Assembly (NCBI GenBank): GCA_965221165.1
Contig: CBDCRP010000002.1
Coordinates: 448,001-512,000, forward strand
Direction: 5' to 3'
Length of the DNA: 64,000 nucleotides
Source of the DNA: a bacterium
Lineage (GTDB): Bacteria; UBA8248
The notes beneath the pieces are model-generated. The model made no database searches and was not told the DNA's origin. It saw nothing but the letters and a program-made list of their open reading frames with translations. A program made the translations under genes and the position numbers. Below are positions 49,850 to 52,894 of the stretch, in pieces (the first letter of the stretch is position 1; each line of letters begins with the position of its first letter).

Positions 49850-50150
49850 CCCGTCGTGGGGAAAACGGGCGGACTCTGCGACGGGACGAGAGTCGGGGGA
49901 GAATCCTCGGAGGGCTATCCCCCGACTCTCACCAAAATAGGGTTTCAGGAAATTTTCTTGTTGCGGGGGAAACGGGCGGACTCTGCAGCAAGACCGGGGG
50001 CCGGGGATAATACACCTCGGGGGTTGAGTTTCCGGCCCCCACTTAAATTCAATGGTGATTTTCTGCTGCGGGGGAAACGGGCGGACTCTGCGGCAGGCCG
50101 AGAGCCGATGGAGCCTCCTAGTGGGAGTCTTCATCGGCTCTCCCTTTTTC
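49850..50150 (+). ncRNA. Three tandem ~105-nt two-hairpin structured RNA-like units (unknown family)
   Basis: Core GGGGRAAACGGGCGGACTCTGC at 49858, 49965 and 50070, closed by different but complementary stems; a second long hairpin in each unit; G-U pairs favour the + strand; ends in a T-run. Confidence 0.7.
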
Positions 50151-50159
50151 GGTAGTGTC

Positions 50160-51035
50160 TCACTTTGAAATCTTCTTCTTGTAAGGGCCACGCGGACCCG
50201 GCTTCGGTTCCCGCGCTTCAATGAGTTCGAGTATCCAGTTCATATCGCGCAATTCAGAATCAAGGCCAGCGGCCATCGCTGGCGTAACCCGCAAACTTTT
50301 GTGGATGCGGCAAAAGTTATAGTGCACGAAATACAACGATAGCATGTGGATATGATTCTCAAGTTTCTTCGAGAAGCCATTCGTTAGACGAGTGAAACGG
50401 CGCATACACATTCTCATGGTGAGGTTTTGTCTTTCAGCGTAGCTGGTGGAGATATGCGCCGGATCGGCCATTCCGGTTACCATCGACATTCGAGTTCCAA
50501 TACATTCAGAAGGGCTGTATCTCCCATCCTTCTCTGATTGACCATATAGCTTCACTAGCATGGCGTAATCAACATCATCCCCAAAGGCATCTTCAACCGC
50601 GTCAAGATATGCCTTGTGGCCGTCTGTGGTCACCTGAACGCGGTTTGCGAGTCTTTCCTTTACATCGGCCATGAACTCATTCGCATAGCCGCTATCACGA
50701 CCGCCTACGAGATAAGAGACAATCAGTTTGCTATCGGCATCTAAAGCCGTCCACGTCCACACGTCACCCGCATCTTCCGGTGCGGCTTCGGCAGTCGCCA
50801 CGTTCTTTTGCTTCGCATAGACAAACGACCATATCTCATCGCACTGGATTCTCTTTGACTTCACATTGCGAACTTGGTGGTCGTGAAATTCTGCGCAAGC
50901 CTCTCCCGCTTTGATGAGCAGTTTCGTCACAGTGTTGATGGACGCGCCCGTTACGCGGGAGATTGCCCGCATGGACATTCCCTCGATAAGAAGGTTGAGT
51001 ATTTGGATTCTTTTATCTGTGTGTAATTTGTTCAT
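50160..51035 (-). CDS. IS1-family DDE transposase
   Basis: N-terminal HTH, QCDEIWSFV, TTDG, STSYAERQNLTMR, RFTRLTNGFSKK, TPAMAAG; stop codon lies inside the left IR. Confidence 0.92.
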   Translation of the reverse strand: MNKLHTDKRIQILNLLIEGMSMRAISRVTGASINTVTKLLIKAGEACAEFHDHQVRNVKSKRIQCDEIWSFVYAKQKNVATAEAAPEDAGDVWTWTALDADSKLIVSYLVGGRDSGYANEFMADVKERLANRVQVTTDGHKAYLDAVEDAFGDDVDYAMLVKLYGQSEKDGRYSPSECIGTRMSMVTGMADPAHISTSYAERQNLTMRMCMRRFTRLTNGFSKKLENHIHMLSLYFVHYNFCRIHKSLRVTPAMAAGLDSELRDMNWILELIEAREPKPGPRGPYKKKISK

Positions 51036-51080
51036 ACATATAATATATGAACTTTATTGCTTAGTGTCAAGTGCAAAGTG

Positions 51081-51344
51081 CTACTCTTTGGAAAAAACTT
51101 CCGAATTAAATGGAGTCAGGTTTTTCCATTTGCGGTCATCGCTTTTTAACCACTCTTCATCATAGTGGTAGACACGACTTTTGTGGTGCCCACATATTAT
51201 TTCTACCGCCGACGAATCGCCTGCTTCTAGCTTTTCTGCATTCTCTTCATCTGTGATGAAATATCCAGTCTCGTTCTCATCTAAAATCACTCCCACGAAA
51301 ACATCATCGAAAGCGCATCTGACGATTACCTTTTCTCCACGCAT
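51081..51344 (-). CDS. Hypothetical protein (IS passenger)
   Basis: 87-aa ORF with GGAG RBS; no recognised motif. Confidence 0.55.
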   Translation of the reverse strand: MRGEKVIVRCAFDDVFVGVILDENETGYFITDEENAEKLEAGDSSAVEIICGHHKSRVYHYDEEWLKSDDRKWKNLTPFNSEVFSKE

Positions 51345-51516
51345 CTCAAATCTCCATTTGGGCGAGGTTCAAACCTTGCCCATTCTACCAGTGCCACAAA
51401 GTAGATTCAAAAAAAGTCTAATTTTTACGATTTATGGTATTGACTCTATGGCACATACCGTTAATATCTATCAGATGTTAATGGTAATGGCACAACTCTA
51501 ATGTGAGGAATTTAAT

Positions 51517-52212
51517 ATGAGCGACGAAGCCGGATCCAAAACACCCGCCCCGCCATATTTGGCGTTCATTACTTTTCTGGGATTCATAGAGTCGATGGCG
51601 ACCATTGGTCTCCCGCATCAGATCGACAAGAGCATCATGAAAAATATGTCTGGCGCAAATCAAAATTGGACGCTTAGTTGCCTGAAATATCTCAAACTGA
51701 CCTCAGAAGGAAATAGGCCTACAGATAAATTCAAACAACTCGTTTCGGTGGATGGCGAAAACAGAAAAGAACTGATGAAGGATATCATAATCAACGCATA
51801 TCCTTTCATATTCAGCGCAGAAGGATTTGATATTAAGACCGCTACGGAAAAACTACTTAATGAGCAATTTGACAGTACAGGGGTGGTAGGCGATACGAAA
51901 AAAAAATCTGTCAGATTCTTCATGAATGCGGTGAAGCATGTAGGTATAGAAATTTCGCCTTATCTGGATCAAATGAAACTCCGAGCCAGGACACCCACAA
52001 AAAACAAAAAAACAAAACGTCCTCTAGGAACCAATGGAAATAACAAGACGAAAGATAAAGAGCCACAAGAGCCGCCAGAAAAGGAGAAAGACACATCCTC
52101 CGACAGTAATTTCAATCAATCTCTCCTAGACAAGATTCCTCCGTTCAATCCTGAATGGACTGAGGAAACTTTGATTAAGTGGCTGGATACAATTAGCAAA
52201 CTGAAAGGGTAA
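51517..52212 (+). CDS. DUF5343-like hypothetical protein (IS passenger)
   Basis: PPY...TF, P..IDKS, L.YL.L, PT..F..LV, AY, FF N-terminal domain; charged linker; KIPPFNPEW tail; GAGG RBS. Confidence 0.65.
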   Translation: MSDEAGSKTPAPPYLAFITFLGFIESMATIGLPHQIDKSIMKNMSGANQNWTLSCLKYLKLTSEGNRPTDKFKQLVSVDGENRKELMKDIIINAYPFIFSAEGFDIKTATEKLLNEQFDSTGVVGDTKKKSVRFFMNAVKHVGIEISPYLDQMKLRARTPTKNKKTKRPLGTNGNNKTKDKEPQEPPEKEKDTSSDSNFNQSLLDKIPPFNPEWTEETLIKWLDTISKLKG

Positions 52213-52217
52213 AAACA

Positions 52218-52246
52218 CCCCCTGATGGAGGTAAGCCATCAGGGGG
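52218..52246 (+). terminator. Hairpin after the DUF5343-like gene
   Basis: CCCCCTGATGG-AGGTAAG-CCATCAGGGGG with no T-tail; could allow read-through or processing. Confidence 0.5.
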
Positions 52247-52255
52247 GGATGAAAC

Positions 52256-52331
52256 GGCCCCGTCGCCAAGTGGTTAAGGCGCGCCTCTGGCAAGAGCGTA
52301 TACGCCGGTTCGATTCCGGTCGGGGCCTCCA
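52256..52331 (+). tRNA. tRNA-like gene: Cys-type body with GGC in the anticodon position
   Basis: GGCCCCG/CGGGGCC acceptor, U73, CCA; D arm GCC-AAGTGGTTAA-GGC; T arm GCCGG-TTCGATT-CCGGT; anticodon arm CGCCT-CTGGCAA-GAGCG. Confidence 0.75.
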
Positions 52332-52344
52332 AATGAGATTGAGT

Positions 52345-52417
52345 GGGGGGTGTGGATGGTTCCCAGGTCAGGACTTAGGCCCCCGTCCTTGGGGTTCGAT
52401 TCCCCAACCCTCCACCA
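52345..52417 (+). ncRNA. tRNA-like RNA with Ala-type acceptor (G3:U70, A73) and non-canonical D/anticodon region
   Basis: GGGGGGT/ACCCTCC-A-CCA acceptor; T arm TGGGG-TTCGATT-CCCCA; the middle does not fold into a standard cloverleaf. Confidence 0.55.
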
Positions 52418-52423
52418 ATCTCA

Positions 52424-52648
52424 TTACTTCGATGTTCCTTTGTTCCACCGCGAATTTGCGGCTTTTTGTGCAATCTCTTTTCGTCTTTCAGGTGATAGCT
52501 TTTCTGCGCGGGCACGTCCGCCCGATCTGCCAAGTATCTGCCCAGCGGTCTGAGTCTCCACAACTTCACCCACCGCAATCTTGGCTACATTGACTGCGCA
52601 CCCTACCACATCACCGGGTCTTTTCTGTCCTTGTGGGCCAGTAGCCAT
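52424..52648 (-). CDS. Small basic IS-associated protein
   Basis: KRPGD, GRSGGRARAEKLSPERRKEIAQKAANSRW; a type I recognise from IS1/IS1595-like elements; AAGGA RBS. Confidence 0.8.
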   Translation of the reverse strand: MATGPQGQKRPGDVVGCAVNVAKIAVGEVVETQTAGQILGRSGGRARAEKLSPERRKEIAQKAANSRWNKGTSK

Positions 52649-52775
52649 GTCGAAAATTCCTTTTATGCAATGACGACTATTATCGTCACACGACGATTAT
52701 TGTTGCAACCCCTTTCGAAGTCAAGGGAAAATGGAGGGCGATAAATTTCAAAGTGAGACACTACCCCTTTTTCAC

Positions 52776-52818: not shown

Positions 52819-52894
52819 GGGGGTGTAGCTCAGATGGGAGAGCGCGTGGATCGCACCCACGAGGTCAGGGGTTCGAATCCCCTCACCTCCACCA
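52819..52894 (+). tRNA. tRNA-Ala (CGC)
   Basis: Canonical 76-nt cloverleaf; CGTGG-ATCGCAC-CCACG anticodon arm; G3:U70; ACCA. Confidence 0.95.

Follow-up and report, generated by a model that had tools for sequence, protein, structure and literature searches.

A lineage of IS1-family transporter elements carries a tRNA-like RNA with alanine identity

Introduction

Insertion sequences (ISs) are thought of as minimal mobile elements, consisting of a transposase gene and two ends. The closest published work on the RNAs considered here is that of Mukai et al. (2017; PMC5389517, cited throughout for parts of the article) on allo-tRNAs and irregular tRNA polycistrons. It describes non-canonical tRNAs of bacteria in which anticodon and identity elements conflict. 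Some of these have a G3:U70 pair and are charged with alanine in Escherichia coli; a link of irregular tRNAs to transposable elements or toxin-antitoxin genes is suspected. The cited parts name no IS family and no element boundaries, and the supplementary figures S5-S7 of the article may show members of the family described here. In this article we analyse a 2,615-bp element at positions 50151-52765 of a 64,000-nucleotide stretch of a Nitrospinota genome (positions 448,001 to 512,000 of contig CBDCRP010000002.1; this whole stretch is called the window in the following). It carries two tRNA-like RNA genes in tandem, RNA 1 and RNA 2, and belongs to a widespread IS1 lineage that keeps a tRNA-shaped RNA with alanine identity as a regular part.

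We are highly confident that the window element is a complete, recently transposed IS1-family transporter, that its RNA 2 belongs to a widespread IS-borne family, and that RNA 1 is an accessory tRNA with discord between body and anticodon. The link between the RNA 2 family and IS1-family transposons seems not to be in print within the literature searched: a full-text search, whose coverage leaves out subscription journals and closed supplements, found no paper that connects a tRNA-like RNA with an IS1-family transposon, and for allo-tRNAs together with transposition it matched solely Mukai et al. (2017) and a review of 2020.

Results

The window element and its insertion site

The element is bounded by perfect terminal inverted repeats of 21 nt (100% complementary) that start with GGTAGTG, each abutted by one copy of the 8-bp target-site duplication CCTTTTTC (Table 1). 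Five sister species (G005, G021, G010, G011, and G003) have the uninterrupted site with a single copy of CCTTTTTC, which continues into the promoter and gene of tRNA-Ala(CGC); the same empty-site joint is present on contigs of the public runs X1, X3, and X5, one of which probably derives from the source sample and is not independent. Target duplication and empty sites together mean that the whole 2,615 bp moved as one unit, both RNAs included, which bears out the preliminary description of this DNA as a mobile module of protein genes and tRNA-like RNAs with the two RNAs 13 nt apart inside the inverted repeats. They also define the ends as 50151 and 52765, ruling out a degenerate internal repeat near 51064-51086 that had been considered as the true IS end. 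The copy number of the element in its own genome is one.

The ends are of IS1 type in both respects, with an 8-bp duplication in the range of 8-9 bp and a repeat start of the form GGnnnTG, which we take to be a trait of the IS1 family. The profile matches of the transposase are mixed: Pfam PF03400 gives 27.3 bits, above its cut-off of 24.1, the best NCBIfam family, NF033558, gives 68.2 bits, below its cut-off of 100, and blastn returns solely genes annotated as IS1 family transposase, on three plasmids, at 66-69% identity over element positions 25-921. Conserved D, D, and E blocks are visible in the alignment. The gene is a single, apparently intact open reading frame (ORF) of 291 codons and not the pair of overlapping ORFs joined by a -1 frameshift that is found in classical IS1; this presumably fits the single-ORF, passenger-carrying IS1 subgroups ('transporter IS'; ISfinder, Siguier et al.).

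The usual order in the lineage is left inverted repeat, orf87 on the minus strand, then the gene for a DUF5343-family protein, a hairpin, the tRNA-like RNA, and the transposase gene on the plus strand, and finally the right inverted repeat. Relative to this order, the cargo block of the window element (orf87, DUF5343 gene, hairpin, RNA 1, and RNA 2) is inverted. The inversion is not an assembly slip, since a tRNA in a sister element has the same orientation relative to its transposase. This sister element, in genome G029 of another genus of the same family, is 2,140 bp long (L124, 1937-4076), has identical 21-nt repeats and its own 8-bp duplication GTTCGCCC, and encodes a transposase identical to that of the window at 266 of 292 aligned positions. 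Both elements keep orf74 at the same end; their cargo differs. In G029 it comprises a minus-strand, class-II-like tRNA-shaped sequence with the loop UUUAGGA (own reading, without an ARAGORN call), a 148-residue ORF, a hairpin, and, just before orf74, a 78-nt tRNA that ARAGORN calls as Leu(UAG) and whose body we read as tRNA-Glu-like. The RNA adjoining orf74 thus contains a UAG triplet in both elements and, as the element of G029 again carries odd tRNAs, such RNAs recur in this sublineage.

RNA 2 belongs to a family with an invariant alanine identity set

RNA 2 receives no call from ARAGORN, and its best Rfam match at permissive thresholds is tRNA-Sec, with 25.4 bits and an E-value of 0.015 (gathering score 47). 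Direct reading gives a 7-bp acceptor stem, a small D-arm (U)GGA-UGGU-UCC(C), the T-arm UGGGG-UUCGAUU-CCCCA, and an ACCA end, with G1:C72, G2:C71, G3:U70, and A73 in the identity positions. The anticodon arm is non-canonical; its loop reads CUUAGGC in the gap-free register common to RNA 2 and its closest relative, in G003. T-arm and 3' acceptor strand are 86% identical over 29 nt to the neighbouring tRNA-Ala. On R1, a covariance model built from 19 family members with zero Nitrospinota sequences among them, RNA 2 scores 77.6 bits (E 4e-15), compared to 35 bits for the host tRNA-Ala genes, and the model finds no second copy in the genome. Folded singly, RNA 1 and RNA 2 are no more stable than their shuffles (z -1.7 and -0.2), which is the norm for tRNAs.

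Within the genus, a DNA search found look-alikes of RNA 2 in three further species (G003, G006, and G008), with G3:U70 kept and compensating changes in the acceptor stem. An exact pattern built from the D-arm and T-arm motifs matches 36 loci in a scan with one genome per species and 49 loci in metagenomes; after parsing, the family comprises 65 loci with 49 distinct sequences and a 7-bp acceptor stem, of which two loci pair 6 of 7 positions. By title, the named genome records belong to Desulfobaccales and other Thermodesulfobacteriota, Dehalococcoidia, Pirellulales, Dissulfurispiraceae, Gemmatimonadetes, Terriglobia, Sphingomonadales, a Woesebacteria metagenome-assembled genome, and Nitrospinota. 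R1 further matches five of the 151 genomes in the class of G066, one of which, the unpublished G176 (locus L162), enters this tally and nothing else; among viral contigs, the strict pattern is found on one and a looser pattern on 23, one of which is strong on R1.

Many members consist of the acceptor stem, a small D-arm of the form GGGA-UGGU-UCCC, a long anticodon-like arm, and the T-arm, and have no variable loop. Every one of the 49 distinct sequences has G-C, G-C, and G.U as its first three acceptor pairs and A at position 73. Pairs 4-7, like the fifth pair of the T-stem, covary across the family through compensating changes. The pairs were read from a subset alignment and by parsing each sequence, as MAFFT put the 5' strand of the acceptor stem in the wrong place when given all 49 sequences; the anticodon arms differ in length and are not aligned by RNAalifold, and no consensus is claimed for this arm. 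Most members do not encode the CCA end and must therefore be processed. Annotation tools rarely call these RNAs: ARAGORN calls one of 21 tested genome loci (as Gln-CUG); of all 65 oriented loci it calls three as Gln-CUG, and one further call, Asn(ATT), overlaps the RNA. None of eight loci tested with Rfam is called at its gathering thresholds. The invariant identity set argues, at the level of sequence, that charging by alanyl-tRNA synthetase (AlaRS) is a selected property of the family.

The family RNAs are part of IS1-family elements

An IS1-family transposase gene on the same strand starts within about 600 nt downstream of the RNA in 32 of the 53 loci with at least 700 nt of flanking sequence (28 identified by script, plus L037, L063, L064, and L076, whose ORF calls ran across the RNA), and lies within 5 kb in 37 of all 65 loci. 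The 21 remaining loci of the 53 include this window, whose transposase gene is located on the other side and strand. In the large Desulfobaccales-type subgroup, the distance from RNA start to transposase start is nearly constant, at 120-123 nt. Repeats of the type GGTAGTGTCC-TAATTTGA bracket family elements of 2.2-5.2 kb with the RNA inside; an exact duplication of 8-9 bp is present in 12 of the 15 rows listed, corresponding to 10 distinct elements, and of the other rows one has a duplication matching at 7 of 8 positions and two have either no duplication or a false left end. The viral contig L138 shows the same order of DUF5343 gene, RNA, and transposase gene. It is thus well supported that RNA 2 is a regular, conserved part of a transposon lineage and not chance cargo, and the recurrence of tRNA-like RNAs in related IS1-family elements, without random decay, supports the preliminary description. 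Co-occurrence with DUF5343, which that description proposed to test, gives evidence against a tight pairing of protein and RNA: only 9 of the 48 loci with at least 900 nt of flank (13 of 65 overall) have a DUF5343 or related gene whose end lies within 300 nt upstream of the RNA, and three DUF5343 homologs in other Nitrospinota genomes have no such RNA near them, as detailed below.

Further irregular tRNAs accompany the family. In L069, L088, and L110, the family RNA is followed by a 78-nt tRNA(UGC) and a 93-nt tRNA(UAU), an arrangement comparable to the odd tRNAs in tandem with other odd tRNAs in Mukai et al. (2017; PMC5389517), and in L065 by a class-II-like sequence with a UAG loop (own reading). 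In G003, an 88-nt class-II tRNA with the anticodon CUA, resembling an amber suppressor and labelled 'Pyl' by ARAGORN, is located 10 nt after the relative of RNA 2 (L005, 1408-1495, minus strand); its neighbours are a DNA methyltransferase gene and a fragment that we read as resembling the zinc-ribbon N-terminus of IS1595-type proteins. Another irregular tRNA cargo is found in L055 and L094: inside the element, upstream of a DUF5343/HARE-type gene and about 660-740 nt before the family RNA, there is a 'tRNA-Ser(CGA)' whose 74-77 nt are too few for a serine tRNA.

Three elements of the lineage are inserted 53-82 nt upstream of a host tRNA gene: that of the window (tRNA-Ala CGC), L047 (tRNA-Arg CCG), and L065 (tRNA-Arg CCU). 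In the window and in L047, the insertion lies 10-15 nt before the -35 box TTGACA of the host tRNA. The lineage may have a preference for tRNA promoters.

RNA 1 is a cloverleaf tRNA with discordant identity

ARAGORN calls three tRNA genes in the window, including RNA 1 as tRNA-Ala(GGC) and the host gene next to the element as a standard tRNA-Ala(CGC). RNA 1 also scores as a canonical tRNA, with 51.7 bits on Rfam RF00005 over 52256-52328 (gathering score 29); it has a 7-bp acceptor stem, an encoded CCA end, and a normal 7-nt anticodon loop, CUGGCAA. In its identity positions, however, it is not a tRNA-Ala, having C3:G70 and U73 instead of G3:U70 and A73. The closest host tRNA is tRNA-Cys(GCA), with 74% identity and the same D-arm, and no homolog of RNA 1 was found at the DNA level among the 61 related genomes searched. 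Contigs of runs X3-X5, from other studies, have diverged counterparts of the DUF5343 gene and of the segment (window 52234-52643) that includes both RNAs and orf74, at ~86-95% identity; small indels occur in them within the D region of RNA 1.

These readings refine the initial picture of two RNAs with intact acceptor and T halves and aberrant anticodon regions. The intact halves are as described, both RNAs having the T-loop TTCGATT, paired acceptor stems, and encoded CCA ends. The anticodon region is irregular in RNA 2; in RNA 1 the loop is normal, and the oddity lies in a C30.A40 mismatch of the anticodon stem and in the clash between body and anticodon. Of the tRNA gene finders proposed as a check, ARAGORN calls RNA 1 and not RNA 2. 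The RNAs do lie downstream of the DUF5343 gene and of a hairpin, which had been called tail-less; this is true of the plus strand, the minus strand having a T-tail like that of an intrinsic terminator.

Other features of the element and its surroundings

The features of the element are compiled in Table 1. The promoter and terminator sites in it come from consensus scans and are to be read as matches, not as evidence of function.

Table 1. Features of the window element and its flanks.
Feature	Position in window	Strand	Basis or remark
Left target-site duplication copy, CCTTTTTC	50143-50150		repeats after right inverted repeat
Left terminal inverted repeat, GGTAGTG...	50151-50171	+	overlaps 3' end of transposase gene; same repeat type ends related elements
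IS1-family DDE transposase, 291 aa	50160-51035	-	Pfam, NCBIfam, blastn, alignment
Promoter-like site TTGACA-17-TATATT, just upstream of transposase gene	51042-51070	-	11 of 12 consensus positions; consensus match only
orf87, 87 aa, without family	51081-51344	-	homologs at same relative place in L059, L102
Promoter-like site, upstream of DUF5343 gene and both RNAs	51440-51467	+	9 of 12 consensus positions; consensus match only
DUF5343-family protein, 231 aa	51517-52212	+	Pfam, predicted structure
11-bp hairpin	52218-52246		-23.2 kcal/mol, z -4.6; T-tail on minus strand only
RNA 1, cloverleaf tRNA, anticodon GGC	52256-52331	+	ARAGORN, Rfam
RNA 2, tRNA-like RNA with alanine identity set	52345-52417	+	direct reading, model R1
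orf74, 74 aa, without Pfam family	52424-52648	-	same end of G029 sister element; paralogs elsewhere in genus
Terminator-like hairpin and T-run, 30 nt past RNA 2, within opposite-strand orf74	52448-52470	+	consensus scan
Right terminal inverted repeat	52745-52765	-	perfect match to left repeat
Right target-site duplication copy, CCTTTTTC	52766-52773		10 nt before -35 TTGACA of host tRNA-Ala(CGC), 52819-52894

The DUF5343 protein matches its Pfam family, PF17278, marginally (27.9 bits, cut-off 27), and its homologs carry the same Pfam label. The structure model of the protein, made from an alignment of 10 sequences, reaches a mean pLDDT (predicted local distance difference test score) of 78.5; it is entirely helical and includes a basic linker that is disordered and, at the C-terminus, two short conserved helices that form a pair. 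A Foldseek search of the PDB gives no match at E <= 0.001, the best being BrxA at E 0.29; the top rows of VIA-align are the DNA-recognition parts of FokI (Z 7.1, root-mean-square deviation 3.2, 142 residues aligned), N.BspD6I, and SspB, with an uncharacterized protein, BrxA (Z 6.0), and BpuJI among the further rows, all at middling Z values. The model suggests that the N-terminal domain is a nucleic-acid-binding domain of tandem winged-helix type, a statement about fold likeness and not about function. PADLOC reports a weak match to the candidate defence family PDC-M34A (E 1e-4). Homologs occur in 4 of 51 Nitrospinota genomes, that of the window included; the ~3.5 kb examined around each of the other three contain no tRNA or R1 match, and no tRNA-like RNA lies within ~1.5 kb of these genes. 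A full-text search found no paper on DUF5343.

The orf74 product ends in the C-terminal motif ...RRKEIAQKAANSRW, and its sole family match is a PHROG of unknown function. A paralog is present in the same genome (G000:C2:776428-776611), and several genomes of the genus have relatives at the DNA level, of which G009 has four. To the left of the element, between a class II ribonucleotide reductase gene and the insertion site (window 49858-50142), there are three repeat copies spaced ~105 nt apart, starting with GGGGRAAACGGGCGGACTCTGC and each containing a terminal hairpin; the repeats are a conserved feature of the genus and match no Rfam family at gathering thresholds.

Codons in the transposase genes

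For a comparison of codons, 26 distinct transposases were aligned (pairwise identity 36-99.7%, median 61%). The valine in column 264 is encoded by GTA in 19 of the 20 genes whose RNA loop carries UAC(A); the commonest codon has a median share of 0.56 over 83 conserved sites that are at least three-fold degenerate. Column 264 reads ATC, ATA, or GTG in elements with other loops; it is GTA in the viral contig L138, with a UAC loop, and GTC in L165, with a GAC loop. The three most fixed sites, AGG (20 of 20), GTA in column 264, and ATA (18 of 19), are all rare codons. A link between CUG loops and a CAG codon in column 262 was dropped, as L163 has CAA in this place.

Of the four CTA codons in the transposase gene of the window element, two flank column 264; G029 has CTA at each of the four positions. 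CUA accounts for 2.3% of the leucine codons in 1,377 long host ORFs versus 9 of 48 in the four genes of the element.

As a separate observation, in loci L027-L107 the codons of columns 106, 264, and 277 (ATA, GTA, and AGG) are almost fixed while other synonymous sites differ freely; these fixed rare codons may be translational pause sites.

Discussion

An element-owned decoder?

The explanation that we consider best overall, and hold tentatively, is that of an IS1 element with an alanine-charged decoder of its own. A transcript from the promoter-like site at 51440 would probably comprise the DUF5343 gene and both RNAs. The RNAs would be trimmed by RNase P and 3' nucleases, after which RNA 2 would be charged with alanine by the AlaRS of the host. 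AlaRS recognises G3:U70 independently of the anticodon; because the invariant acceptor identity set thus needs no anticodon recognition, charging would be possible whatever the host. Once charged, the RNA would serve the element on the ribosome as a decoder of particular rare, mostly A-ending codons in element genes, tuning transposase synthesis or freeing it from the host; in the window copy, the candidate pairing is that of the UAG of the loop with CUA codons. This is the best mechanistic reading, because it combines the invariant identity set with established AlaRS recognition and with the insertion of alanine by non-canonical G3:U70 tRNAs in E. coli (Mukai et al., 2017; PMC5389517). Among the codons, the nearly fixed GTA that goes with UAC loops and the CTA codons of the window element count in its favour. 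In its specific form, an AlaRS-charged decoder of rare codons that are kept in the genes of the element, above all that of the transposase, it is possible though on balance doubtful. Extended to the lineage as a whole, across many phyla and some phages, as a portable AlaRS-charged decoder whose loop is matched to a fixed rare codon of the transposase, which controls transposition and possibly recodes this codon to alanine, it becomes rather unlikely. The preliminary description saw in these RNAs a loss of decoding fidelity. This is doubtful in view of the invariant alanine identity set and the anticodon-like loops; as judged from their sequences, the RNA 2 family may well be charged RNAs that decode.

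A number of observations weigh against the decoder. Some concern the RNAs themselves: the loop has 9-10 nt in the Desulfobaccales-type subgroup, compared to the canonical 7; in the register of the family, pairing in the RNA 2 anticodon arm is poor (5 of 8 layers, own reading), and a 5-bp stem with a 10-nt loop could form instead; RNA 1, with its GGC anticodon, reads common codons and is a poor fit; the host already has tRNA-Leu(UAG), tRNA-Ala(GGC), and tRNA-Cys; and in the window copy the RNAs do not precede the transposase gene. Others concern the codons. AGG and ATA are fixed without a matching RNA in the same elements, so that the match of GUA and UAC could be a coincidence, of about 1 in 20; L037 has a UAC loop together with GTC in column 264; and the pairing of UAC with GTA is largely one inherited state and not many independent gains. 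The CUG, UCG, UCC, and UGC loops have no consistent partner codon in the transposase genes. In the window copy, the preservation of all four CTA codons relative to G029 is expected about 1 time in 4 at a synonymous difference of 29%, and the element is richer in AT than its host, which is sufficient by itself to raise its share of A-ending codons. For this copy, the codon evidence is thin.

Alternative explanations

The alternative that fares best, while still unlikely, is that the RNAs are processing signals, their tRNA shapes serving as sites for RNase P and 3' trimming at which the transcripts of the element are cut. The upstream mRNA would then end in a protective hairpin and, in the usual gene order, the transposase mRNA would receive a defined 5' end, uncoupled from read-through. 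Much of the architecture is in keeping with this: a hairpin directly upstream of the RNA recurs in the family, with a 12-bp stem and compensating changes in Desulfobaccales-type elements; the transposase gene follows at the nearly constant spacing noted above; RNA 2 is followed by a terminator-like site; transcription can run into the RNAs of the window, since the hairpin before them has no T-tail on the plus strand; and most members, lacking an encoded CCA, need processing in any case. Such a role needs only the shape of acceptor stem and T-arm, however, and leaves unexplained both the invariance of G3:U70, A73, G1:C72, and G2:C71 in 49 of 49 sequences and the anticodon-like loops, and the RNAs of the window and of G029 are not located upstream of a transposase gene. 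Processing and decoding could also coexist.

It is improbable that the RNAs are tRNA mimics in a conflict, whether as decoys or replacements for the targets of anticodon nucleases, as RNA antitoxins, or as addiction modules based on toxic mis-decoding. Allo-tRNAs and irregular tRNA polycistrons do occur near toxin-antitoxin genes, and two engineered variants killed E. coli (Mukai et al., 2017; PMC5389517). The weak PADLOC match of the DUF5343 protein and its middling fold likeness to the DNA-recognition domains of restriction, BREX, or Ssp proteins point in the same direction, but no toxin, nuclease, or known defence gene was found among the proteins of the element, the steadiest neighbour of the RNA is the transposase (32 of 53 loci) and not DUF5343 (9 of 48), and the DUF5343 homologs elsewhere in Nitrospinota stand without the RNA. 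A decoy for an anticodon nuclease would moreover be expected to keep a host-like anticodon arm, which RNA 2 does not. Of the functions initially suggested, the anticodon-nuclease decoy, the RNA antitoxin for DUF5343, and the portable integration target found no support here.

There is equally little to recommend the notion that the RNAs are non-functional passengers, captured tRNA genes that decay in the cargo region. It would suit RNA 1, given its stem mismatch, its clashing identity, and the failure to find a homolog in related genomes, as well as the irregular anticodon arm of RNA 2 in this copy and the 21 of 53 family loci without a transposase gene directly downstream. Stem-keeping covariation, an invariant identity set, and presence in many phyla are not what decay produces, however; acceptor stem, T-arm, and CCA are intact in both RNAs, and diverged copies (~86% identical over 52234-52643, both RNAs included) persist in contigs of other studies.

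That the RNA or the DUF5343 protein steers insertion toward host tRNA genes, as the three insertions upstream of such genes and the likeness of RNA 2 to the neighbouring tRNA-Ala might be taken to indicate, is highly improbable: these are three cases only, no tRNA gene is seen in the examined flanks of the other elements whose ends are defined, the target tRNAs are not of one identity, no motif is common to the duplicated 8-mers, and we know of no RNA-guided DDE transposase of such a kind.

Implications and relation to known systems

The family provides irregular metagenomic tRNAs, which the cited parts of Mukai et al. (2017) leave unplaced, with a genomic home and clear boundaries. If its RNAs are charged and decode, they would represent mobile DNA with its own, anticodon-independent decoder, which in the lineage-wide reading would be translation machinery private to the transposon and a means of controlling its transposition, and would bear on the regulation of transposases, on natural missense and recoding tRNAs, and on compact scaffolds for orthogonal tRNAs. 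If they are processing signals only, they would offer a bacterial parallel to 3'-end formation of the mascRNA type.

Among mobile elements, the lineage resembles the IS1 family in its DDE transposase, which matches IS1 models best, in its GGnnnTG repeats and 8-9-bp duplications, and in the placement of cargo between one end and the transposase gene. It differs from classical IS1 in having no frameshift between two ORFs, in a match to the NCBIfam IS1 equivalog that stays under the cut-off, and in the tRNA-like RNA genes that recur at a fixed position as part of the element. In carrying tRNA genes it resembles phages and integrative elements, which as mobile DNA likewise bring decoders along, in many cases for rare host codons; in contrast to these, the carrier is an insertion sequence of 2-5 kb with one to a few genes, and the RNA combines alanine identity with varied anticodon-like loops.

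Among RNAs, RNA 2 and its relatives are not allo-tRNAs in the strict sense, which have 8/4 or 9/3 base pairs in acceptor and T-stem: their consensus is 7/5, with a 7-bp acceptor stem in all 49 parsed sequences and a 5-bp T-stem, and they do not have a long variable arm. With transfer-messenger RNA (tmRNA) they share the G3:U70 alanine identity and a reduced D region; RNA 2, however, is 73 nt long and has no mRNA-like part or tag reading frame, the permuted-tmRNA model of Rfam scores it at 13.5 bits against a gathering score of 47, and ARAGORN finds the tmRNA of the host as a separate gene elsewhere. The mascRNA model of Rfam is also far below its threshold on RNA 2; the likeness to mascRNA, from MALAT1, is one of arrangement, a tRNA shape that follows a protective 3' structure of the upstream transcript.

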